Below are positions 3,358-48,885 of a DNA stretch of 54,364 bases, in pieces. A model generated the notes under the pieces. The model searched no databases. It worked only from the letters and a program-made list of their open reading frames with translations, and had not been told where the DNA came from. Positions within the stretch are counted from its first letter, which is position 1. Each line of letters opens with the position of its first letter. Made by a program: the position numbers and the translations under genes. Origin of the DNA: Enhygromyxa salina (GTDB lineage: Bacteria > Myxococcota_A > Polyangia > Nannocystales > Nannocystaceae); contig NZ_PVNL01000139.1 of the NCBI RefSeq assembly GCF_002994635.1, positions 146,055-200,418 of the forward strand. The letters are read 5' to 3'.

Positions 3358-4179
<822 letters not shown>

Positions 4180-4279: not shown

Positions 4280-5833
4280 CTACAGCGCGTCCAGGATCTG
4301 CTTGATCTCGTCGAGATCCGCGTCTCCCGGCAATACCGCCTGCGCCGCCGCGATCGCTGCATACGCCGCGTCAATCGCGACGCCTGCTTCCGTGAGTGTG
4401 CCCGACTTGATCGCAATCAATGCGTCCACATACGCGATGATCGCCGCGCCCTTCGCCATCCGACTCGCGTCGCTGTCGAGCAGCTGCGCGAAGCTGTAGC
4501 TCTGCGACACCTCCATGCTCTCGAAGCTGCTCACGTCCTCCCAGGTGGCGGTCACCGTGATCTGTGCGGCCTCGTCGATCAGCTCCGGCGCGCAGGTCAC
4601 CAGCTCCTGCAAGAACACCATCGAGTCATTCGGCGCGAGGTGCTGCGGCTCGACCTCCTTGGGATCCGACGACAGCTCCTCCCCAGAGAATTTCACGATC
4701 TCGAACCCAGGCGGCAAGCTCAGCTCGACCTGAACGTTGCGCGCCGCCAGCCCCATCGTGCTGATGAAGTTGGTGTTGAAGGTGTCCCAGGCCTCAGCCT
4801 CGTTGGTGATGAACACCGAGGCGCCCTTGCCCGCGTCGGTGACCACGTCCATCAGATCGTCGTTGTAGGTGCCGACCAGATCGACCCCCGCGCCGACCAG
4901 GTAGATCCCGTCCGAGCCCCCGTAGTTGGCGCTCTCGGCGATCAGCTCGATGTCCGTCACGCCCGCGTTGGCGCCACCGTCCGAGATCAACACCAGGCGA
5001 TTGAGCGCGTTGATGTCCCAGGTCTGCTGGGCCAGCTCGTAGCCCGAGGTCAGCCCGCCGTGGAGATCGGTCCCACCGCCAGCGGTGAGCGCCTCGATCT
5101 TGTCGAGCAGCTGCGGATCATTGGGCCCGGTGACCGCGTAGCCGGCCAGCGTCCACGAGTTTTGGGTGTCCCACTCGACCATCGAGACCTTGTCGCCCTC
5201 GCGCAGGCTGGCCGCGATCGCCCGGCAGCTGTGCTCGAGCAGCTCGATCGGCTCGCCCGACATCGACCCCGAGGTGTCGAGCACCAGCGTGATGTTCATC
5301 GGCGGCCGCTCGGCGTCGGTCATCTCCTCGCTGGTGACCCCGAGCTGCAGTTGGTAGTGCGGCGCGTCCTCCGGGAACCCTTCGAGCATGCGCAGCTCAG
5401 CGCTCAGCGCCAGGCTGCCGTCGTCGGCGGGGGCATAGTCGAACGAGTAGTAGTTCATGAACTCCCACGGCCGGATCGCCACGGGCCCGAGCCCGAGCCC
5501 ATCGACCAGGACTCGCTCGCGCACCTGCACCGGGGAGCTCATCGAGTTCGAGTCGTCGGGCGAGAGGTACAAGATCACGTCGTCGACGTCGTTGCACAGC
5601 GGCTCGCCAGTGTCGGTCTCGGTCTCGGTCTCCTCTGTGGGACCCTCCTCGTCGGGGATCACGGGTTCGTCGCCTCCCTCGGCGCCGCCGTCCTGCCCGC
5701 CGCCGCTCTCGCCCCCATCGCCCGACGTGTAGTAGCCCTCGTCGCCGAACGAGGAGCCGTCGTCACCGCAGCCGGCGAGGCTGACGGTCAGGGTCACGAG
5801 AGCGAGGGCACAGGGAAGCTCGATACGTTTCAT
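4280..5833 (-). CDS. von Willebrand factor type A (vWA) domain lipoprotein, YfbK-like architecture (N-terminal VIT-like region + vWA)
   Basis: Signal peptide and lipobox MKRIELPCALALVTLTVSLAGC; acidic Gly/Glu-rich linker; MIDAS motif LDTSGSMSGEP; paralog of 6291..7946. Confidence 0.8.
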   Translation of the reverse strand: MKRIELPCALALVTLTVSLAGCGDDGSSFGDEGYYTSGDGGESGGGQDGGAEGGDEPVIPDEEGPTEETETETDTGEPLCNDVDDVILYLSPDDSNSMSSPVQVRERVLVDGLGLGPVAIRPWEFMNYYSFDYAPADDGSLALSAELRMLEGFPEDAPHYQLQLGVTSEEMTDAERPPMNITLVLDTSGSMSGEPIELLEHSCRAIAASLREGDKVSMVEWDTQNSWTLAGYAVTGPNDPQLLDKIEALTAGGGTDLHGGLTSGYELAQQTWDINALNRLVLISDGGANAGVTDIELIAESANYGGSDGIYLVGAGVDLVGTYNDDLMDVVTDAGKGASVFITNEAEAWDTFNTNFISTMGLAARNVQVELSLPPGFEIVKFSGEELSSDPKEVEPQHLAPNDSMVFLQELVTCAPELIDEAAQITVTATWEDVSSFESMEVSQSYSFAQLLDSDASRMAKGAAIIAYVDALIAIKSGTLTEAGVAIDAAYAAIAAAQAVLPGDADLDEIKQILDAL

Positions 5834-6290: not shown

Positions 6291-7946
<1,656 letters not shown>

Positions 7947-7996
7947 GGGTCTTACCGAAGGGAGGTTCCTTCCCCTGGTACCCCGACGACCCTGAT

Positions 7997-8075
7997 CCGA
8001 TCACTCCCGATCACTCCCGATCACTCCCGATCACTCACGATCACTCACGATCACTCCGATCACTCCCGATCACGC
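7997..8075. repeat. tandem repeat of 10-bp unit CCGATCACTC (about 8 copies, last ones degenerate)
   Basis: Direct reading: ccgatcactc x4, acgatcactc x2, cgatcactc, ccgatcacgc; lies between the rpoD stop (8084) and the start of vWA gene 6291..7946 (ATG at 7946), i.e. in the latter's promoter/5' region. Confidence 0.85.
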
Positions 8076-8083
8076 CAAACAGC

Positions 8084-9853
<1,770 letters not shown>

Positions 9854-9881
9854 GCGATGCTGGACCTCTTGCGGGCTCAAG

Positions 9882-14115: not shown

Positions 14116-14975
14116 GCGGTCGGGGTGAGCTCGCCGAGCTCGGCGACATCGATCGGATCATCGCGGCCGCGCTCCACGAAGATCTCGCGTCGGGCGACAT
14201 GACCTCGCGGCTGACGGTCCCGGCGCTGGCGCCGGCCAATGGCCGGATCATCGCCAAGCAAGCGCTCAGCTTCTGCGCCGGGCCCGTGGTCGTGCGGACC
14301 TTCGAGCAGGTCGACCCCGCGGTCACGGTCGAGCTGTGTGTCGGCGAGGGCGATCGCGTGAAGCCGGGCACCGAGCTGGTCCGCCTCGCCGGGCTCGCCC
14401 GCTCGCTGCTGGCTGGCGAGCGCACCGCCCTGAACTTGCTCGGCCGCGCCTGCGCGGTCGCGACCCTCACCCACGCCTACGTCGAGGCCGCCGGGCCCAC
14501 CCTGCGGGTCGTCGACACCCGCAAGACCATGCCGGGCCTGCGCGCGCTCGACCGCTACGCCGTGCGCATGGGCGGCGGCCACAACCACCGCAACGACCTT
14601 GGCGCCGGGCTGTTGATCAAAGAAAACCACATCCGCTGCGCCGGCTCGGTCGACGCCGCGGTTCGGGCCGCCCGCGAGCACGCCTCACACGCCGTCCGCG
14701 TCGAGTGTGAGGTCGAGACCCTGGCCGAGGTCCGCCAGGCGATCAGCGCAGGCGCCGACGTCTTGTTGCTCGACAACATGGACGACCAGACCCTGCGCGA
14801 GGCCGTCGAAATCGCCCGCCAACAAAATGATCGCGTGCTGCTCGAGGTCAGCGGCGGGATCACCCTCGCGCGGCTGCCGACCCTGGCCACGATCGGCCTC
14901 GACCTGGTCAGCGTCGGCGCGATCACCCACTCCGCCCCAAGCGTGGACATGTCTTTGCTGTTCGAGCTGCCCTGA
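14112..14975 (+). CDS. nadC: nicotinate-nucleotide pyrophosphorylase (carboxylating), quinolinate phosphoribosyltransferase
   Basis: GTG at 14112 overlaps the upstream TGA (GTGA); conserved QPRTase blocks VVDTRKTMPGLRALDRYAV, MGGGHNHRNDLGAGLLIKENH, LLDNM. Confidence 0.85.
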   Translation: MSGRGELAELGDIDRIIAAALHEDLASGDMTSRLTVPALAPANGRIIAKQALSFCAGPVVVRTFEQVDPAVTVELCVGEGDRVKPGTELVRLAGLARSLLAGERTALNLLGRACAVATLTHAYVEAAGPTLRVVDTRKTMPGLRALDRYAVRMGGGHNHRNDLGAGLLIKENHIRCAGSVDAAVRAAREHASHAVRVECEVETLAEVRQAISAGADVLLLDNMDDQTLREAVEIARQQNDRVLLEVSGGITLARLPTLATIGLDLVSVGAITHSAPSVDMSLLFELP

Positions 14976-15004
14976 CCCGCTGTAAATGACCCCCACAGAG
15001 AGCT

Positions 15005-15300
15005 TGCCCTTCGCCGACTGCAGCCGCTGGCGCGTCTGGTCGCTTCGCTCCTCGGGACCGTTTGCTCGCAGGCGCATGTGTGGCCCCCTGGGAGGGGGCT
15101 CTGAGCACATTTTCCGCTACGCAAAAATCTAGCCAAAGGTTCGCGCGCGCTGCGCGGCCCATGGACGCCGGCAAACAAGGTTCCGAGCCCCCTCATAGGG
15201 GGCCACACATACCCATGCGCACAGCTAGCCCCGAGGAGCGAAGCGACCAGACGCGCCAGCGGCTGCAGTCGGCGAAGTGCCAAGCTCTCTGTGGGGGTCT
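15005..15300. repeat. composite palindromic intergenic repeat element (REP/MITE-like), copy A; second copy at 46125-46335
   Basis: Inverted arms 15011-15106 and 15186-15283 built from a 45-bp unit CCCCGAGGAGCGAAGCGACCAGACGCGCCAGCGGCTGCAGTCGGCGAA plus the palindromic module GAGCCCCCTC(C/A)(C/T)AGGGGGCCACACAT; ends in TGTGGGGGTCTAAAAA immediately 5' of the ATG at 15305. Confidence 0.8.
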
Positions 15301-15304
15301 AAAA

Positions 15305-15901
15305 ATGCTACGCTCCCGCACCTTGCGAACCCGGACACAGCCGCCACGCAGGCCCCTGTTCGCGGTGGCCATGAGCTTGCTGACCGTGGTGCCCTTGCTC
15401 GTCGGCGGCTGCATCGAGCCGCCCGAGCGCGAGGCCGACGCCGACAGCACCCACGCCAAGGCCGACGCGCCGACCAGCGCCAAGCGACAGGCCACGATCC
15501 CCGCCGACGGCTGGAACGACAACATCGCCTGGCGTGGATTCGAAGAGGGCCTCAAAGAAGCCAAGAGCTCGGGCATGCCGGTCATGATGGTCGTCCACAC
15601 CGACTGGTGCGGGAACTGCCAGAAGCTCAAGCGCACCTTCAACGCCGACGCCAAGCTCGAGCAGCTGTCCGAGCGCTTCGTCATGGTTCACGTCAACCAA
15701 GACGACAACCCCGAGGCCACGCTGTATGGGCCAGACGGCCAGTACATCCCCCGGGTGATGTTCCTCGACGCCAACGGCAACGTCGATCAGGGCCTGCAAA
15801 ACCCCAACCGGCCGAGCAGGTTCCGCTACTTCTACACGCCGCAGGAAGACCTTGTCGCGACCATGCGACGGGCCCTGGACCAGCATGGCAACAAGTCCTG
15901 A
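15305..15901 (+). CDS. thioredoxin-fold lipoprotein (thiol:disulfide oxidoreductase-like, WCGNC motif)
   Basis: ATG at 15305 right after the repeat element; signal and lipobox ...LLTVVPLLVGGC; redox motif HTDWCGNCQKL; alternative start at ATG 15371. Confidence 0.7.
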   Translation: MLRSRTLRTRTQPPRRPLFAVAMSLLTVVPLLVGGCIEPPEREADADSTHAKADAPTSAKRQATIPADGWNDNIAWRGFEEGLKEAKSSGMPVMMVVHTDWCGNCQKLKRTFNADAKLEQLSERFVMVHVNQDDNPEATLYGPDGQYIPRVMFLDANGNVDQGLQNPNRPSRFRYFYTPQEDLVATMRRALDQHGNKS

Positions 15902-17844: not shown

Positions 17845-19944
17845 ATGACCAAATCCAAGTGGTTCCCTCGTAGTTTGTTGTGCGCCTCGCTGATCCTCGC
17901 TGCTGGCTCAGCACAGGCCGGCGGCACCAAGACCCACAAGCTCGACGAGTTCGACGAGTTCGACGACGGTGAGGTCGTCGGCGCCGCGATCGAGACCAGC
18001 GGCCGGGTCACCCGGGGCTACGCCAGCGAGCGCGCCGATCTCGAGCTCAGCTCCGCGTTCACCTGCGTGACCGACGGCAAGCAAGCCTGGGTCGGGACCG
18101 CAGACAACGCCACGATCCAGCAGGTTGACCTGCGCGGCGGGACCCCGGCCGTCAAGCAGCTCGTCGAGCTCGAGGGCGTGGTCGTCAGCGCGATCGCCCG
18201 GCTGCCCAGCCAGGATCTCGTCGTCGCCGTGCTCCCTGGTTCCAAGCTGCTGCGGGTCGACAAGAACGGCGAGGTCAGCGACTTCGCCGAGCTCAAGGAC
18301 GTCGAGCAGATCTGGGCGATCGTCCCCCACAAGGGCAAGCTGCTGGTTGCGACCGGTCCCAAGGGCGAGCTGTGGTCGGTCGGCACCGACGGCAAGGACC
18401 CGAAGGTCGTGCTCGACGTGCCCGAGAAAGACATCTTGTCGGTGCTCGCCGTCGGCGACGAGATCCTAGTTGGGACCTCGCCCAAGTCGCGGCTGTACAA
18501 GCTGGACGCCGCGCTCGAGGGCGTGCTGCTCCACGAGTTCAAGGGCGATGAGATCCGCGCGCTCGCGCTGTCCGGCTCCACGGTGATCGCCGCCGTCAAC
18601 AAGTTCGAGGATCGCAGCGTGTCGAGCCGCGTGGCCCTGACCAAGCAGCTCAACCGCTCGAGCCTGACCGGCGAGAAGCCCGAGGACAACAACACCGCCC
18701 GGTCCCGCGCCGACGCCGACGCCGAGCTGTGGGCCGTGGACCTGGGCAGCAAGCGCGACGTGCTGCGTGCCCAGGACGCGGCGTGGGACAAGTGGTTCGC
18801 CAAGGGCTCGCAGTACTTCATTGATCTGATCGCGCTCGACGACAGCGGCACCGTGCTCGCGGCCAGCTCCGAGGGCGGCAGGATCTATCGGGCCCGCGGG
18901 CGCCGAGACGTCTCGATCGTCGCGGATCTCGAGGAGCGCCAGGCGACCAGCATGTGCCGGACCGACAGCGGCGACATCCTCGCAACCGCCAGCGACGGCG
19001 CGGCCGTGTACCTGCTCTCGCCCAAGGCCGCCAACGCCAAGACCAAGCCGCGCTGGGTGTCCGAGGTGCTCGACGCCGATCACCCCGCCCGCTACGGCAG
19101 CTTCGCGCTCGAGGGCAAGGGCAAGCTCGAGCTGCGCGTGCGCTCGGGGCCGACCGAGGAGGTCGATGATCGCTGGAGCGCCTGGAAGCCCGTCAAGCTG
19201 GCCAGCGAGAACGGTGAGCTGCGTGGGTCCACGGATCTGCCGCAGCGTCGCTACCTGCAGGTCGAGGTCGCGCTTGGGGACGACAGCGCCGAGCTCAGCT
19301 CGATCACTGCCTTTTACGCGCCCGAGAACCTCGCGCCGCTGGTGGAGGAGATCGACGTCAAGATGCCGAGCGTGAGCAGCAGCAGCGACGAAGAGCCCGA
19401 TCCCACGATCACGATCGAGTGGGACGCCGAGGCCCGCGATGATGACGACCTGCTGTACGAGGTTGCGATCCGGCGCACCGGGACCGGGGATGACGCCTGG
19501 GTCAGGCTCAACAAGGACGGGCCGCTCACCAAGAAGGAGATCAAGCTCGACCTCGATACCCTGGCTGACGGGATCTATGAGGTCCAGGTGATCGCCAGCG
19601 ACGAGCCCAGCAACGGCGCTGGCGCGGCGGCGCGGGACTCGTTGATCTCCGAGCCGTTCGTGATCGACCGACGTCGGCCGACGCTGGAGAACGTGCGCGC
19701 CAACGCGGGGCGGATCACCGGGGTCGCCAAGGACCAGGGGAGCTACGTGCGCGACGTGGCGTTCTCGATCGACGGTGGGGCGTTTCGGTCGGCCTCGGCG
19801 AGCGATGGGCTGTATGACTCGAGCACTGAGCAGTTCGAGCTGGTCCTGCCGAGCGAGCTTGGGCCCGGGCTGCACCGCGTGGTCGTGCGCGCGCGAGACG
19901 TGCGGGGCAACCTCACGACCGTGGCGCTCGAAGTCGGCGGCTGA
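17845..19944 (+). CDS. secreted hypothetical protein (signal peptide, repetitive beta-rich body); its 3' end is the duplicated integration site of the downstream island
   Basis: Signal MTKSKWFPRSLLCASLILAAGSAQA; no catalytic motifs recognised; last about 40 codons are duplicated at 30310-30428. Confidence 0.6.
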   Translation: MTKSKWFPRSLLCASLILAAGSAQAGGTKTHKLDEFDEFDDGEVVGAAIETSGRVTRGYASERADLELSSAFTCVTDGKQAWVGTADNATIQQVDLRGGTPAVKQLVELEGVVVSAIARLPSQDLVVAVLPGSKLLRVDKNGEVSDFAELKDVEQIWAIVPHKGKLLVATGPKGELWSVGTDGKDPKVVLDVPEKDILSVLAVGDEILVGTSPKSRLYKLDAALEGVLLHEFKGDEIRALALSGSTVIAAVNKFEDRSVSSRVALTKQLNRSSLTGEKPEDNNTARSRADADAELWAVDLGSKRDVLRAQDAAWDKWFAKGSQYFIDLIALDDSGTVLAASSEGGRIYRARGRRDVSIVADLEERQATSMCRTDSGDILATASDGAAVYLLSPKAANAKTKPRWVSEVLDADHPARYGSFALEGKGKLELRVRSGPTEEVDDRWSAWKPVKLASENGELRGSTDLPQRRYLQVEVALGDDSAELSSITAFYAPENLAPLVEEIDVKMPSVSSSSDEEPDPTITIEWDAEARDDDDLLYEVAIRRTGTGDDAWVRLNKDGPLTKKEIKLDLDTLADGIYEVQVIASDEPSNGAGAAARDSLISEPFVIDRRRPTLENVRANAGRITGVAKDQGSYVRDVAFSIDGGAFRSASASDGLYDSSTEQFELVLPSELGPGLHRVVVRARDVRGNLTTVALEVGG

Positions 19945-19946
19945 GC
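19828..19946 (+). repeat. left copy of 119-bp direct repeat (about 96% identical to 30310-30428); attL-like island boundary formed by the 3' end of gene 17845..19944
   Basis: Direct alignment of both copies: 5 mismatches in 119 bp; both end in ...GAAGTCGGCGGCTGAGC. Confidence 0.85.
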
Positions 19947-20059
19947 GCTCGAACCTGGCCGCGCCCTCGCTGACGCCGCTGGGGTTCGTGCCGCCTGCGG
20001 AGTACGACACTAGCTTGGCCTCGTGACGTCCGCCCGTGGTGTTCACCACGGCCATGAGA

Positions 20060-29848: not shown

Positions 29849-30309
29849 CACCCATACGATTGCAATCAAATCTGCGCGAGCACGTGGACGTCGCGGCCGA
29901 CCTGGCGCACGCAATCCACCAAATCCTCGAGCTCTTTGAGCTGCGCGCGGGTCATGGTGAAGGCGCCGATCGGATCGACAGAAACGAAGATCGTCAGCCA
30001 GCTCCCGGTCCAGCGAAACGTCGCGTTCGCGCGCTCGACCCGGGCGTCGGCGGCGTTGGAGTCGAGCAGGGTCCGGCGCCAGAGCCAGAGCTGGCGGCGT
30101 CGTAGGTGTCTGGATCCCCCTGCCCCGAGCGTCGTCGCGTCGATGAAGCGATCCTCGGAGCACCGGCACGCGGTCGAAGCATTTTTCACGGGGTCGGGCA
30201 CCGCGGGGGATGGTTCGGCTCCACCAGCGTCGAAGATCGGCACGGTGCTGGCAATGCCGCCCCACCAGCATGGCCAACATCAACGATCTCTTCCACGGCC
30301 TCGAGCGCC

Positions 30310-30428
30310 GAGCAGTTCGAGCTGGTGCTGCCGAGCGCGCTCGGGCCCGGGCTGCACCGCGTGGTCGCGCGCGCGCGGGACGTGCGGGGCAACCTCACGA
30401 CCGTGGCGCTCGAAGTCGGCGGCTGAGC
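30310..30428 (+). repeat. right copy of 119-bp direct repeat (attR-like); displaced pseudo-3'-end of gene 17845..19944
   Basis: Encodes ...FELVLPSALGPGLHRVVARARDVRGNLTTVALEVGG*, identical in 37 of 40 residues (5 nt mismatches) to the C-terminus of the 17845..19944 protein; the upstream part of ORF 30106..30426 is unrelated. Confidence 0.85.
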
Positions 30429-30573
30429 CCACGCCGCCCTCACGCCACGGGGCGTGAGTGTCAGCGCCGCTCAGAAGTTCGGCCGGCGGGCCGGCTGACA
30501 ACCCACGCATCCAACACATGCACGCGCCCAAACATCGTGGCACTCTGGGGGCCACACCCCGGGGCGCGGTTTC

Positions 30574-42275: not shown

Positions 42276-43748
42276 GTGGACGCGCCAGATTCGCAGTCGC
42301 CCGCGGGGACCTCCCGCGATTGGGTGTTCTGGTCGCTGCTCGCAGCTGCCGTGATCAGCCGGCTGGTGTGGGTGGTGTGGGTCCACCCCCCGCGCGACCA
42401 CGTGTTCAGCGACATGGCCCACTACGTCCACCGGGCGCGGCTGGTCGCCAGCTTCGAGGTCCACGCGGGCATGCGCGAGATGGTGTGGCAGGCCTGGGGC
42501 ACGCATGCGCTGTTGGCGATCCCGATGCTGCTCATGGGTCCCGGCGAGTCTGCGCTCGAGTTCGCCGGTCTGGTCTGGGCCGGGTGCTCGGCGGCGACGG
42601 TGGTGCTCGGCTACCAGCTGGGCCTGCGGACGCTCGGTGGCGCGGGCAAGCCGAGTTCGCGCAACACTCGGTGGCTGGCGGCGGGGCTGGGCCTGGTGCT
42701 GCTCGTGTGGATCCCGCTGCTCTCGCACACCGGGTTCTTCATCAGCGAGACGCCGTACACCTGCGTGCTGCTGGCGATGACGCTGGCGATCGTGCGGCTG
42801 ATCCAGGACGGTCGCGGGGCGCTCGGGGCCGGGATCTGGGCTGCGCTGGCGTTCGTCCTGCGGCCGCAGTCGGCGGTGTTCTTGCTGATGCTCGGGGCGG
42901 TGTGGCTGCTCGATCGCCGCCACCATGACGCGCACGGGATCCGCGGCACGTGGTCGCGGCGGGTCGACGGGCGCGCGGCGTTGCTGTTCTCGCTGCCGCT
43001 CGCGCTCGCGCTGGCGATCTCGGTGGTGCGAGTTCGCGTGTACACCGGCTCGTTCGGGGCGATGGCCGAGAACGGCAGCATGAACCTCACGGCCGGGCGC
43101 TGCCACAACATCGTCACGCGCTCGTATCCGAGCCAGGCCGCGCTCGAGTCAGCGCGACAGACCGGCAGCCCTGTCGCTGATCGGCGGATCAGCCTGCCAG
43201 GGTTTCGGGCGCTGGGGCGCGAGGGACCCGACCACCCGCTCGCGCTGCGCCCGGCGCTGGGCGGCGAGAGCATCGATCTGGTCGGCTATATCGGCGACGC
43301 CGCGGTCCATCGCGAGATCCGCCAGCGCTGCTACGCCGCGACGGGCATCGCCGGGCAGCTGCGCTACGCGATCACCAACACGGCGCTGCTGTGGGTCGTG
43401 GCCCGGCCGTGGCCCGAGAGCTCGGACAGGTGGGCGCCGGAGCTGTTGCCGCTGGCGGTCCGCGGTCGTGATCTCGCGGCCCTGCTCGCCCCGCTGTGCG
43501 TGGCCGGAATGATCTTCGCGCTGCTCGGCTGGGGCCTGGCGAGGCCGGCCCGACCGTCCGCCCAACACGAGCGCCAGGCCTGTCTGGGCGTGTGCGCGCT
43601 GCAGTTGCTGTCAATCCTGGTGATCTCGGCCGTGTTCTTCGGCACTCCGCGCCTCCGGGTGCCCTACGATCCCTTCGCTCTATTATTGGCGCTCGCGCTG
43701 GTCTCGTGGGCGACAACACGGCTCGCGCATCGCCTGCGCCAAGATTGA
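42276..43748 (+). CDS. polytopic membrane protein, possibly GT-C fold glycosyltransferase (ArnT/PMT-like)
   Basis: 3' third of the spurious 1368-aa ORF 39642..43748; GTG at 42276 precedes first TM WVFWSLLAAAVISRLVWVVWV; about 10 predicted TM helices with loop motifs; the function call is an inference. Confidence 0.45.
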   Translation: MDAPDSQSPAGTSRDWVFWSLLAAAVISRLVWVVWVHPPRDHVFSDMAHYVHRARLVASFEVHAGMREMVWQAWGTHALLAIPMLLMGPGESALEFAGLVWAGCSAATVVLGYQLGLRTLGGAGKPSSRNTRWLAAGLGLVLLVWIPLLSHTGFFISETPYTCVLLAMTLAIVRLIQDGRGALGAGIWAALAFVLRPQSAVFLLMLGAVWLLDRRHHDAHGIRGTWSRRVDGRAALLFSLPLALALAISVVRVRVYTGSFGAMAENGSMNLTAGRCHNIVTRSYPSQAALESARQTGSPVADRRISLPGFRALGREGPDHPLALRPALGGESIDLVGYIGDAAVHREIRQRCYAATGIAGQLRYAITNTALLWVVARPWPESSDRWAPELLPLAVRGRDLAALLAPLCVAGMIFALLGWGLARPARPSAQHERQACLGVCALQLLSILVISAVFFGTPRLRVPYDPFALLLALALVSWATTRLAHRLRQD

Positions 43749-43803
43749 CAGGCCCCCCAAGCCCGCCCGATGGTCCGCCCAACCAGTTTGGGATCCGTTC
43801 CGC

Positions 43804-44448
43804 ATGTCCGCCGCCCGTCAGCACACCTTCGCGCGCCTGCGCATCGACCCCGACCGACCTGATCCGCGCAAGCTGATCCCAGCCGTCGACGCGCTGCGCC
43901 GCGGTGAGGTCATCATCTATCCAACGGACACCGGCTACGCGTTCGGCTGCGCGCTGTCGAGCAGCAAGGGGATCGCCGAGCTGCGCCAGCTCAAGGGCAT
44001 CCACGCCAAGCATCAAAAACCCCTGACGATGCTGGTCGAGAACCTCAACGACATGGGCCGCTACGGGGTCATGAGCAACACGGCCTTTCGCGTGGTTCGC
44101 CGACTGCTGCCGGGGCCCTACACGATCGTGCTCAAGGCCACCTCGGACGTGCCGCGGGCCATGAAGAACCGGGCCCAGGAGGTCGGCATGCGGCTGCCGG
44201 ATCACAAGGTCAGCACGATGTTGGTCGAGCACCTAGGTGAGCCGCTGCTGACTGGATCGGTGACCCCGGGCGAGGACGCGCCCGAGCTCGAGGATCCACA
44301 GGAGCTCGAGAGTCGCTACTCGCGGGAGATCGCCTTGATGATCGACGCGGGCCACATCTGGCCCGAGCCCTCGACGGTGCTGCGCTTCGACGAGTCCGGC
44401 GACATCGAGGTCCTGCGCGCAGGACAGGGGCCGCTACCGGACTGGTAG
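43804..44448 (+). CDS. tsaC: L-threonylcarbamoyladenylate synthase (YrdC/TsaC family)
   Basis: YrdC motifs VIIYPTDTGYAFGC, KGIHAKHQKPLTMLV, MRLPDH. Confidence 0.85.
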   Translation: MSAARQHTFARLRIDPDRPDPRKLIPAVDALRRGEVIIYPTDTGYAFGCALSSSKGIAELRQLKGIHAKHQKPLTMLVENLNDMGRYGVMSNTAFRVVRRLLPGPYTIVLKATSDVPRAMKNRAQEVGMRLPDHKVSTMLVEHLGEPLLTGSVTPGEDAPELEDPQELESRYSREIALMIDAGHIWPEPSTVLRFDESGDIEVLRAGQGPLPDW

Positions 44449-44474
44449 GGCGGACTTTTAGGGCGGACTGGTAG

Positions 44475-46124: not shown

Positions 46125-46335
46125 GCCTGGACGCCGGCACCCCCGAGGAGCGACCAGACGCGCCAGCGGCTGCAGTCGGCAAACACCCCCGACGTAGGTC
46201 GGGCACGCACCGAGCCCCCTCCCAGGGGGCCACACATGCCACCGCACACAAACAGCCCCGAGGAGCAGAGCGACCAGACCCGCCAGCGGCTGCAGTCGGC
46301 GAACACCCCGACCGATGTGGGGGTCTAAAAAAACC
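46125..46335. repeat. composite intergenic repeat element, copy B (same family as 15005-15300)
   Basis: Two direct copies of the 45-bp unit (46141-46190, 46257-46305) flanking the palindromic module GAGCCCCCTCCCAGGGGGCCACACAT; ends with TGTGGGGGTCTAAAAAAA upstream of the ATG at 46351. Confidence 0.8.
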
Positions 46336-46350
46336 CGTATCCTCGCGGCG

Positions 46351-48885
46351 ATGTCGACGGGCCAAGCCGAGGCAAATCCCCAACCGGCCGACCCACCCGC
46401 GCGCCCGCTGCCGCGCTGGTCGCTGGTCCTGGTCGCCGGGTTGCATGCGCTGATCTTCGCCTGGGCTGGCGCGAAGCTGGCCTGGAGCGAGTGGTCGAGC
46501 TTCACGATCGTCTGCTACTTGCTCGCGCTGGGGCACGCGCTGACAGCCGTGGCGGCTGGCGCGAGGCTGCGGGCGCTGGCCCCGATCTGGCGGGTGAGCT
46601 CGGCGTTTGGGCTGATCGTGCTGGGCTGGCTGGCGTGGGAGCTGACCTCGGCGGCGAGCTACCTCGCGGGGCTGTACGGCTCGCTGGGCGAGGGGATCGG
46701 CGCGGGGTTGCTGGCGGTGATCGGGCTGGTCGCGCTGCTGAGCCTGCCGATCTCGGCGTGGGGCCTCGCGGCCACCTGGCGGCGCGCCTACAACGGTGGC
46801 GCGGCCGCGGCCACGACCGTGCTGCTGTGCGTGTGGACCCTGGGCGCGCTGGGTCAGGCAGAGGACGCCCACGCCGAGCTGGTGCCGCTGCCCGGTGAGT
46901 TCGAGCTGGTCGACCGCCACGACCCTGGCGTCCAAAACAGCGTGGTCGAGGCCCTGCTGTTCGCCGAGATGTCGGGCCGGATCGAGCACTGGGGGGTGCT
47001 GCCCGAGGTCCCGACCGAAGGCCCGATCGAGAAGGTCGAGGGCGGCTACCGCCACGCGAAGCTGCGGGTGCCGTCGCTGTACACGGTCGCGCCGATCGCC
47101 TGCGTCCCCGATCCCGCGTCCGACGAGTCGGTCGCGGTCGTGACCTACATGGTCCTCAGTGAGAAGCCGTCCGCGCGGCCTGACGAGGTCGCCGCCGTCG
47201 AGCCCGTGACCCGCTGCCTCCGCGCCGCCCCCGACCAGATCGTCGCGGAGATCGTCAGCCTGATCGCGTCCGAGGCCCTGCGCGCGCCCGTGAAGATCGA
47301 CGTGATCAGCGGGGTCGCGCCGCTGCGCTCGCGGGTCCCGGCCCTCGACATGTTCTCGCTGCGCCCAGGCTTGGACGGGGTGTGCGACGAGCACCACTGC
47401 CTGATGCCGTGGCAGCTCGTGGCGCTCGACCAGTTCACGGCCAACGAGCCGCTGCCGTTCGTGCCCGACTTTCGCGTGGGGGTGTCGGCCGTCGAGCTGC
47501 GCGCCGCGCTGGGCTTCGAGGTGCCCGAGGACGTGCTCCGCTTTGACCGAGAGCAGCGCAGGCCCGCGCGGCTCGAGCGGCTGATCGAAGCCGGCAAGGC
47601 GACCCCGCGGCCGGCCGACGTCGAGTCCTGGCAGCTGATCGACGGCCTCACGCGGATCGAGACCCTCAGCTACATGGTCACGCGCAACGGCCTGTTCACC
47701 TCGCTGGTGCGCATGCACAAGCGCGAGGTTCGGCTCAGCCAGCGCAGCCTCGATCAGGCCCGCGTCGCCGCCGACATGCACATCGCCAAGGCCCAGCTGA
47801 AGGACGGTCGGTTCCGCTACACCCTCGATCCGTTCACGGGCGCGCAGGAGCTCAACAACTGGAACCTGCCCCGCCAGGCCGGCACCACCTTGGTGATGTG
47901 CGAGCTCGGCAACGACGCTCGCCGGACCCGGCGCGTGGGCGGGCTGTCGCTGAAGTTCATGGCCAGGCACGCGCGGCCGACCGGCGAGCTGATCCCGCTG
48001 ACCAAGCGGCGCCGGGCCGAGCAGGCGGATCTGGGCTCGACCGCGCTGCCGGCGATCGCGTTCGCTAGCTGCCGCGAGCACGTCGGCGACAAGCACGATC
48101 GCACCTTTGCTGGCATGACCCGATTCCTGCTCGCGATGCAGCGCGAAGACGGGAGCTTCTATCCGCTCTACGACCTCGCCGGGGGTCACGTCATCGACGG
48201 TCCCGAGCCGATGTACGCGGGCGGCCAGGCGATCTTTGCGCTGAGCCTGGCCGAGAAGCTCGCGCTCGAGCAACCCGACGCCGCCGCAGCCGCCGGCCTA
48301 CCCAGCGCCGAGGTCCTCAACGAAGCGGTCGAGCGCGCGATGGCGTTCTACACCGGGCCCTACTGGGCGACCTTCGTCCGCGATTTTTTTTGGCTCGAAG
48401 AGAACTGGCACTGCCTCGCGGCCCGGGCCTCACTCGATCACCACCGCAATGACGCGTACGAGCGCTACTGCATCGACTACATGACCTACAAGGCGCGCCT
48501 GGTGCTCGACGAGAGCGCCGACGTGGCCCGCGAGTTCTACGGCGGCTACTCGTTCGGCAACATCCTCACGCCGGTCAACACCCCGGCCGCCGGGTTTGGC
48601 GAGGGCATGGCGGCCGCGATCGCGCTCAAGCGCGCGCGCGGGGAAGACGTCGAGGCCGACATCGAGCAAATGCGTGACGTCATCGAGTTCCTGCTGCGCC
48701 AGCAATGGAACAAGGACAATTGCTTCGCCTGCACGCCCCACCGCACGGTGGTCGGCGGGTTCTCTGAGTCCATGAGCGCGCCCGAGATCCGCATCGACTA
48801 CACCCAGCACGCCTGGTCCGCGCTCGGGCACGGCGGCGATTGGATCTACGATCAGCTGCCAGCGCTGGCCCCGGGCGAAGAGTGA
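46351..48885 (+). CDS. hypothetical membrane protein: N-terminal about 4-TM domain plus about 650-aa soluble domain
   Basis: ATG at 46351 just 3' of the repeat element (in-frame ATG at 46315 lies inside the element); TM helices in the first 200 aa; no family recognised. Confidence 0.6.
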   Translation: MSTGQAEANPQPADPPARPLPRWSLVLVAGLHALIFAWAGAKLAWSEWSSFTIVCYLLALGHALTAVAAGARLRALAPIWRVSSAFGLIVLGWLAWELTSAASYLAGLYGSLGEGIGAGLLAVIGLVALLSLPISAWGLAATWRRAYNGGAAAATTVLLCVWTLGALGQAEDAHAELVPLPGEFELVDRHDPGVQNSVVEALLFAEMSGRIEHWGVLPEVPTEGPIEKVEGGYRHAKLRVPSLYTVAPIACVPDPASDESVAVVTYMVLSEKPSARPDEVAAVEPVTRCLRAAPDQIVAEIVSLIASEALRAPVKIDVISGVAPLRSRVPALDMFSLRPGLDGVCDEHHCLMPWQLVALDQFTANEPLPFVPDFRVGVSAVELRAALGFEVPEDVLRFDREQRRPARLERLIEAGKATPRPADVESWQLIDGLTRIETLSYMVTRNGLFTSLVRMHKREVRLSQRSLDQARVAADMHIAKAQLKDGRFRYTLDPFTGAQELNNWNLPRQAGTTLVMCELGNDARRTRRVGGLSLKFMARHARPTGELIPLTKRRRAEQADLGSTALPAIAFASCREHVGDKHDRTFAGMTRFLLAMQREDGSFYPLYDLAGGHVIDGPEPMYAGGQAIFALSLAEKLALEQPDAAAAAGLPSAEVLNEAVERAMAFYTGPYWATFVRDFFWLEENWHCLAARASLDHHRNDAYERYCIDYMTYKARLVLDESADVAREFYGGYSFGNILTPVNTPAAGFGEGMAAAIALKRARGEDVEADIEQMRDVIEFLLRQQWNKDNCFACTPHRTVVGGFSESMSAPEIRIDYTQHAWSALGHGGDWIYDQLPALAPGEE

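Follow-up and report, generated by a model that had tools for sequence, protein, structure and literature searches.

The two intergenic repeat copies in the 54,364-nt stretch of Enhygromyxa salina DNA that we analyzed (the window) most probably represent a lineage-specific, non-coding, modular repeat of MITE/BOX/BIME-like character that has been recently mobile and prefers gene termini. We put the probability of this reading at about 0.75. It rests on the anatomy of the repeat unit, on the placement of one unit end, T, against the boundaries of open reading frames, and on the spacers that the repeat occupies in closely related strains.

Three full units of ~120 nt and one partial unit were present in the window, whose G+C content is 63–75%. 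Direct reading and a repeat search recovered all of the shared sequences named in the original prediction. The core 18-mer CCAGCGGCTGCAGTCGGC of the shared 45-mer had four exact sites, at 15013-15030 (minus strand) and at 15256-15273, 46163-46180, and 46283-46300 (plus strand). When up to three mismatches were allowed, this 18-mer gave five matches compared to 0.37 expected, and five were reached in none of 100 shuffles. The sequence TGTGGGGGTCTAAAAA occurred exactly at 15290-15305 and 46316-46331 (0.05 expected), a third T end (TGTGGGGGTC followed by ATTTA) lay on the minus strand at 14988-14997, and the hairpin module GAGCCCCCTnnnAGGGGGCCACACAT was found three times, once on the minus strand and twice on the plus strand (H in Table 1). 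The repeat search aligned inverted arms at 15006-15104 and 15182-15280 (99 nt, 86% complementary), segments 15183-15276 and 46210-46303 in direct orientation (86%), and segments 14988-15106 and 46207-46325 in inverted orientation (119 nt, 82%). Because this last match extends over 119 nt, the true repeat unit is ~120 nt long. The 45-bp sequence originally taken as the unit is indeed shared by both copies but is only the M1 module of the larger unit, and the left 45-mer of copy B is 5 nt short. The copy boundaries, first placed at 15005-15300 and 46125-46335, moved to 14983-15305 for copy A and 46141-46333 for copy B. A common peptide in spurious open reading frames had also been noted, and RSDQTRQRLQSA is in fact encoded by three open frames among the copies.

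Table 1. Parts of repeat copies A and B in the window.
Feature	Position	Strand	Remark
Copy A, left unit: T module (GACCCCCACAGAGAGCTTGCCC on the plus strand) and A/T tail TAAAT (14983-14987)	14983-15009	minus	
Copy A, left unit: M1 (the originally described 45-mer)	15010-15057	minus	
Copy A, left unit: V (15058-15076) and H (15077-15102; stem 15083-15089/15093-15099)	15058-15102	minus	
Copy A, center: 5' extensions of both units, head to head	15103-15185	.	Compared with L008, L025, L033, L038
Copy A, right unit: H (15186-15211) and V (15212-15228)	15186-15228	plus	
Copy A, right unit: M1	15229-15276	plus	
Copy A, right unit: T (..CTCTGTGGGGGTC) and tail TAAAAA (15300-15305)	15277-15305	plus	
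Copy B, 5'-truncated unit: M1 only, 5-nt deletion	46141-46183	plus	
Copy B, diverged J-type linker from M1 to the next H	46184-46211	plus	Arrangement as in tandem arrays
Copy B, full unit: H (46212-46237) and V (46238-46255)	46212-46255	plus	
Copy B, full unit: M1	46256-46303	plus	
Copy B, full unit: T (..GATGTGGGGGTC) and tail TAAAAAAA (46326-46333)	46304-46333	plus	

Copy A folds as a whole into a long palindrome (z = -20), and it had been described as a composite palindromic element. The two arms share 84% identity, whereas each is 90–92% identical to copies in E. salina DSM 15201. Because the arms resemble the DSM 15201 copies more than each other, copy A is two independent units placed back to back. 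The center of copy A consists of fragments of a "type 2" extension, ..CTAGATTTTT.. on the minus strand and GCGCGCGCTGCGCGG-CCCATGGACGCCGG on the plus strand.

The window also contains other repetitive sequences. A 10-nt tandem repeat, CCGATCACTC, is present in ~8 copies at 7987-8066, either where the minus-strand gene 8084-9880 begins or immediately upstream of it. Two neighboring genes on the minus strand (4280-5833 and 6291-7592; 3965-4063 and 7594-7825) are paralogues with blocks of 72–90% identity at a spacing of 2011-2020 nt; both contain long GTC/GCC-type triplet repeats, with Asp/Gly/Glu-rich runs on the coding strand. Two 134-nt stretches that are 93% identical (19818-19951 and 30300-30433) each comprise the last ~40 codons and TGA of a gene (..LHRVVVRARDVRGNLTTVALEVGG*) and are a C-terminal domain common to two paralogues, outside the repeat family.

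Alignments of the copies defined the order of the full unit as one of several alternative 5' extensions, H, V, M1 or M2, T, and an A/T-rich tail. H is GAGCCCCCT-nnn-AGGGGGCC-ACACAT and forms a 7-bp GC hairpin whose loop is free; V consists of 6–9 variable bases and then GCGAACAAACGG; M1 is CCCCGAGGAGCGAAGCGACCAGACGCGCCAGCGGCTGCAGTCGGCGAAG, the 45-mer; and T is tCTAAGGTCTATGTGGGGGTC, which ends in ..AAGGTCTATGTGGGGGTC and is followed by a variable tail (TAAAAA, ATAAAA, TAGAG, ATGAC, and others). Apparent conservation of M1 is inflated, as the DSM 15201 loci were retrieved via an exact 22-mer inside this module. A second subfamily retains H and T and has M1 swapped for M2 (CCCGTTGGGAGCGAGCGAAGCGAGTGACCTGCGAAG), and three alternative extensions occur upstream of H. 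One extension type, the J linker GTACACGTCCGCCGAAGCCAC, connects, in direct arrays, a unit without T to the H that follows, a layout shared by copy B. Sub-modules are also reiterated in tandem, as 7 × 44 nt in L007, 3 × 139 nt in L001, and 3 × ~152 nt in L004. Because the copies differ by indels, the repeat is non-coding. Beside full units, L001 (6090-6420) and L034 (7830-7950) carry short tandem arrays derived from the linker, with repeats of 24 nt (GTCCACCGAAGGCCCCGTACGA) and 19 nt (GCAGTCAGCGAAGCACCC), and L028 has a (CCCT)n run at the matching place. In the single metagenome copy (L038 2519-2545), M1 has GCTTCGC, the reverse complement, in place of GCGAAGC, a change that creates a perfect 7-bp inverted repeat with a downstream GCGAAGC; the corresponding sequences are direct repeats in E. 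salina copies.

The stem of the H hairpin was paired in 99% of cells, with one compensatory change from T-A to C-G, and the loop varied freely. Consensus folding of 39 units on both strands gave weak folds in which the H hairpin alone was recovered repeatedly, and single units folded like shuffled sequences (z = -0.06, +0.06, -0.58, and -0.73). A candidate long-range helix between CCACACAT and ATGTGGGG was rejected, as it was 88% paired, showed no covariation, and had its last pair broken in 14 of 31 copies.

Scanning one genome per species with a 22-base pattern from the 45-mer, a search whose resulting stretches did not include the window, identified 34 matching stretches, 29 of them in E. 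salina DSM 15201. NadC encoded in the window is 100% identical to an E. salina protein and 90% identical to NadC of this strain. A profile built from the first 30 copies then gave 85 matches, consisting of 76 in the 29 DSM 15201 stretches, 4 in the window, and 5 that were spurious; the copies were 84–96% alike. The other five stretches, from Amycolatopsis and two MAGs, matched only a short piece of the profile and were dismissed as chance. A scan of metagenomes with the H module returned a single contig with a diverged full unit at its end, the same module had no matches among the viral contigs scanned, and the plasmid and phage collections held no match to the repeat. Because matches concentrate in DSM 15201, with almost none elsewhere, the family is high-copy and confined to a narrow clade of E. 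salina-type genomes. A MITE/REP-like element had been proposed, with further genomic copies as its test, and the DSM 15201 stretches and profile matches support a dispersed, non-coding family of this kind. The repeat also breaks assemblies: at least two DSM 15201 contigs (L018 and L022) end inside a unit.

The position of the repeat relative to genes was assessed using genes called by a third-position G+C heuristic, for which stops are reliable and starts are not. Thirty-five of 38 clusters lay in spacers, and a called gene overlapped the cluster at the remaining three (L006, L008, and L031). Among 41 T-bearing cluster edges, 23 faced the stop of a convergent gene and 18 faced a start. All but one of the stop-facing T ends were within 20 nt of the stop (22/23; median -3 nt), and the stop codon was inside the tail or T module in 12. 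The 18 start-facing T ends lay 0–302 nt from the start, with one outlier and a median of 56 nt. By contrast, the H side was at least 63 nt from any gene in all cases (Mann-Whitney p about 1e-7). Both unit orientations were about equally frequent in spacers between tandem genes on the same strand. All seven inverted pairs had T ends out and none had T ends in, which is the arrangement expected if T ends dock independently at two flanking genes. Copy A has this arrangement: its left unit docks at the nadC stop, with its edge 7 nt past the TGA (14973-14975), and its right unit ends at 15305. Copy B stops 4 nt short of GTATCCTC, a host box that is conserved, and 17 nt short of ATG 46351.

The original prediction that these elements consistently sit upstream of start codons therefore fails for the family as a whole, as 23 of the 41 T ends face stops and orientation between tandem genes is mixed. 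Within the window, T ends had been placed 5–30 nt before an ATG. This placement is correct for ATG 46351, the start codon in the annotation and one that four strains share, but neither public annotation has its start at ATG 15305. The latter codon overlaps the last A of the copy A tail, is in frame, and has a GTG counterpart in DSM 15201; the start of the downstream thioredoxin-like gene (trx) is TTG 15323 in RefSeq and ATG 15371 in GenBank.

For the question of site choice by small bacterial repeats, the strong docking of the T end at stop codons provides a testable clue. In two of three element-free orthologues of stop-facing sites, a C5-6 run directly follows the stop (TAGCCCCCCTCGACC and TGAACCCCCTCGCACC); the third site, at the sua5 3' end, is without a C run. 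The background is low, with C5 within 12 nt of the stop at 3 of 166 element-free stops, a frequency that led us to reject C runs after stops as a general host feature. In a separate tally, a C5-6 run right after the stop was seen at three element-free orthologous sites, L035 4862-4876, L042 2915-2930, and window 43746-43760 (TAGCCCCCCTCGACC, TGAACCCCCTCGCACC, and TGACAGGCCCCCC, respectively). Such runs could be a target motif or a T-end footprint of the repeat. They hint that the target resembles the T end, although no such run is present at the sua5 3' site. It is conceivable, if improbable, that the T end is a homing determinant that steers insertion to the termini of open reading frames via stop-proximal or ribosome-binding-site-proximal A/T sequence next to a C/G run. 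The driver would then be an enzyme, possibly domesticated. If true, homing by the T end (..TGTGGGGGTC plus A/T tail) would be a mode of gene-boundary targeting not described for bacterial miniature elements.

Comparison of strains showed that the family has moved. Four orthologous spacers, limited to loci overlapping the window, were compared between the window strain and DSM 15201, with flanks 87–94% identical, and none of the four was occupied in both strains. The nadC-trx spacer contains copy A in the window and 138 unrelated bases in DSM 15201; homology between the strains ends with the nadC stop and picks up again precisely at 15306. The spacer before 46351 contains copy B in the window, whereas the corresponding spacers of DSM 15201, GCA_002994615.1, and a Logan contig are 40–122 nt long and without a unit; the box GTATCCTC and the start at 46351 are conserved in all four strains. 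Upstream of sua5, a two-unit array begins right after the preceding stop in DSM 15201, whereas the window spacer is 57 nt long and free of units; GCA_002994615.1 also lacks the array. Finally, at the 3' end of sua5, the DSM 15201 unit has its T end within the gene, compared to spacers of 26 nt in the window and 19 nt in GCA_002994615.1. The last three differences are marked as gains by the outgroups. Because none of the four spacers is shared and three gains are outgroup-marked, the repeat family is recently mobile, with independent gains in sister strains. At the nucleotide level, the compared spacers are too divergent between strains to separate clean insertion from replacement, and the "empty" window spacer 43748-43804 weakly resembles the J linker; some absences could thus reflect decay rather than sites that were never occupied. 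Sister strains with ~90% identical genes sharing none of four compared insertions makes the family a fast marker of strain divergence, in a lineage of poorly studied marine myxobacteria.

The repeat can also alter gene ends. Sua5 of DSM 15201 ends in ..GQGRFLETPT*, and its last four codons and stop (GAG ACC CCC ACA TAG; L043 3214-3228, contig JMCC02000175.1) are the T module; the NCBI annotation ends this sua5/yciO-family gene at the TAG of the element. Both the window and GCA_002994615.1 have the ancestral end, ..GQGPLPDW*. In DSM 15201, the repeat has rewritten the C-terminus encoded by a housekeeping gene, sua5. The end of ndk reads GCT TAA followed by GACCCCC in DSM 15201 versus GCG CGC TGA ACCCCC in the outgroup. 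Beside the DSM 15201 insertion at sua5 is a 58-aa DUF1328 gene (L043 3562-3738) that is absent from the corresponding spacer of the window (44449-44474) and of GCA_002994615.1; this gene may have been carried along with that insertion or have been gained or lost separately. By shifting real gene ends and creating spurious open reading frames with a common peptide, the repeat is a concern for annotation.

We weighed four other explanations for these observations. The most plausible of them, which we regard as possible but doubtful, is that the repeat is a classical MITE, which would have arisen from an insertion sequence by deletion, would be moved by the DDE transposase of that sequence, and would carry inverted repeats at its termini and duplicated target sites. 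The small size, non-coding nature, dispersal, and recent gain of the units would all fit, as would the A/T richness of the two ends (CTAGATTyTT.. and ..GTCTAAAAA), a short and imperfect inverted similarity between the termini of a single unit (only ~7/9 nt; GAGCCCCCT/GACCCCCAC), and a clear direct repeat of 8–11 bp, CTTGCTAG(A/G)TT, at the flanks of L025. L025 was the only such case, however; the best direct repeats at cluster flanks averaged 9.2 nt compared to 8.8 nt in mismatched controls, which argues against a family-wide target duplication. The 5' end is heterogeneous, with its three kinds of extension, internal modules are both swapped (M1/M2) and reiterated, and neither a transposase nor a full-length parent element was found in ~350 kb of fetched sequence, which is a small and biased sample. 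No solo T ends bounding a gene were found in the fetched sequence. The one gene between oppositely oriented clusters (L001 6521-7411) was considered as a transposase and rejected; from its GDxxN, GNHD, and GHEH motifs, the putative product reads like a metallophosphoesterase. We think it unlikely that the units are of the REP/BIME or REPIN type, as hairpin substrates of a single-copy Y1 (RAYT-like) enzyme that are themselves inherited vertically within the lineage. The invariant, compensated stem with its free loop, the extragenic and clustered placement in alternating orientations, and the strictly lineage-restricted distribution favor this assignment, but a ~120-nt unit that has only one hairpin, of 7 bp, and lacks a GTAG-type head does not, inverted partners are no closer to each other than random copies, and sister strains share no occupied spacer among the four. 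A preprint reports that REPIN populations are for the most part inherited vertically (bioRxiv 10.1101/2022.05.22.493013).

The remaining two explanations assign the repeat a function. A selected 3'-end element, in which the opposite-strand unit from the stop to the GC hairpin serves as a terminator or exonuclease block for the upstream mRNA, would account for the tight spacing of 22 of 23 stop-facing T ends, the strong and conserved hairpin, and the C-rich character of the would-be transcribed strand just past the stop. The opposite orientation is about as common, however, no U tract follows the hairpin, a terminator scan of both copy regions found no terminator-like site at H, and the orthologous genes of sister strains lack the element; we judge a role of this kind to be improbable. 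Less probable still is a T end that acts as a portable promoter, ribosome-binding site, or 5' UTR for the downstream gene. In its favor, both plus-strand T ends in the window point to plus-strand genes at the same distance (TTG 15323 is also 17 nt away), a G run lies 7 nt before in-frame ATG 15305 at Shine-Dalgarno-like spacing, and several other start-facing copies have a TAnnnT box 4–8 nt further on. The preponderance of stop-facing T ends and the mixed orientation between tandem genes speak against it, and the DSM 15201 orthologues of the downstream genes function without the element. Moreover, -10-like boxes just downstream of copies A and B (TACGCT, 15309-15314; TATCCT, 46338-46343) are host sequence, because strains without the element also carry them. 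A sigma-70-type promoter scan of both copy regions found no site. Rfam covariance models gave no match at the gathering score over the window, with only chance hairpin matches below it (mir-BART17, 29.5 bits versus a gathering score of 70), and a tRNA/tmRNA scan found nothing meaningful. With fold z-scores near 0 and only the 7-bp hairpin kept, the suggestion that the element donates a promoter or 5' UTR structure is not upheld, and the repeat points to no new regulatory system. As a separate observation on host sequence, GTATCCTCnCG is conserved in four strains (window 46337-46353, L039, L040, and L041) and ends 7 nt before the ATG of an 844-aa gene; TATCCT looks like a candidate -10 box of a leaderless mRNA, and a similar box, TACGCT, lies 8 nt before TTG 15323.

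We thus favor a lineage-specific modular repeat that settles at gene termini. The copies show that units occupy spacers with the T end against the boundary of an open reading frame, either a convergent stop or a co-directional start or promoter region, such that two units in one spacer lie with T ends out, as in copy A. They also show that sub-modules undergo local tandem amplification after dispersal, and that the T end and tail, which hold stop codons on the opposite strand, can rewrite gene termini. For the mechanism, the following course can be proposed. Units would be mobilized in trans by an enzyme, with the H hairpin and T end as likely recognition features. The T end may prefer A/T-rich or G/C-run sequence at the ends of open reading frames, and selection would then keep insertions that spare genes. 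Effects on neighboring genes, namely the G run at Shine-Dalgarno distance from in-frame ATG 15305, the displaced sequence upstream of -10 boxes, and a hairpin in the 3' UTR, would be side effects without a common regulatory function.

In the literature searched, we found neither Enhygromyxa repeats nor myxobacterial MITEs described. Several known systems share features with this repeat. Pneumococcal BOX elements (boxA-boxB(n)-boxC) are likewise non-coding, intergenic, and modular, with a variable number of internal modules, and are clustered and sometimes nested; no transposase is known for either. The H..M..T units, reiterated sub-modules, and J linkers resemble BOX in design, not by homology: the two are unrelated in sequence, and the Enhygromyxa repeat swaps M1 and M2, has three 5' extensions, and anchors T at the termini of open reading frames. 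Correia elements of Neisseria have 26-bp inverted repeats and a TA duplication, features that are not general in the Enhygromyxa repeat, and the two families are similar in having units of ~100–200 bp in dozens of copies. The same size and copy number hold for QMITE2 of Coxiella, but its 7–11 nt direct repeats and GTAG REP are again not general here. In its location, the Enhygromyxa repeat is similar to QMITE2, which is reported mainly from the 3' UTRs of open reading frames and from intergenic regions (PMC5896051), and MITEs are able to alter gene ends and expression (PMC10969869). By the strict definition of a MITE, the Enhygromyxa repeat is small, non-coding, and dispersed but lacks a general target-site duplication.

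Like REP, BIME, and REPIN-RAYT systems, the Enhygromyxa units are extragenic, bear hairpins, alternate in orientation, and are restricted to one lineage. They differ in being four times longer, with a single short hairpin, no conserved tetranucleotide head, and no 20–40 nt palindrome with a GTAG-like head; unlike the doublets of REPINs, their pairs do not co-evolve, and sister strains differ in occupancy. Mycobacterial MIRUs form tandem arrays of 40–140-nt units in spacers, with ends that overlap flanking stop or start codons, much as seen here. MIRUs keep to a single orientation with respect to the operon and contain small coupled open reading frames, whereas the Enhygromyxa repeat is of mixed orientation and has no conserved open reading frame. 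Enterobacterial ERIC/IRU sequences are imperfectly palindromic intergenic repeats of ~120–130 nt and resemble our repeat in having a mobilization mechanism that is not known, but a single Enhygromyxa unit is not palindromic, and a long palindrome arises only from two adjacent units, as in copy A. The repeat is a previously undescribed, lineage-restricted member of the bacterial intergenic mosaic repeats, of the ordinary selfish kind, and its docking at gene termini is a noteworthy and unusual preference among such repeats.
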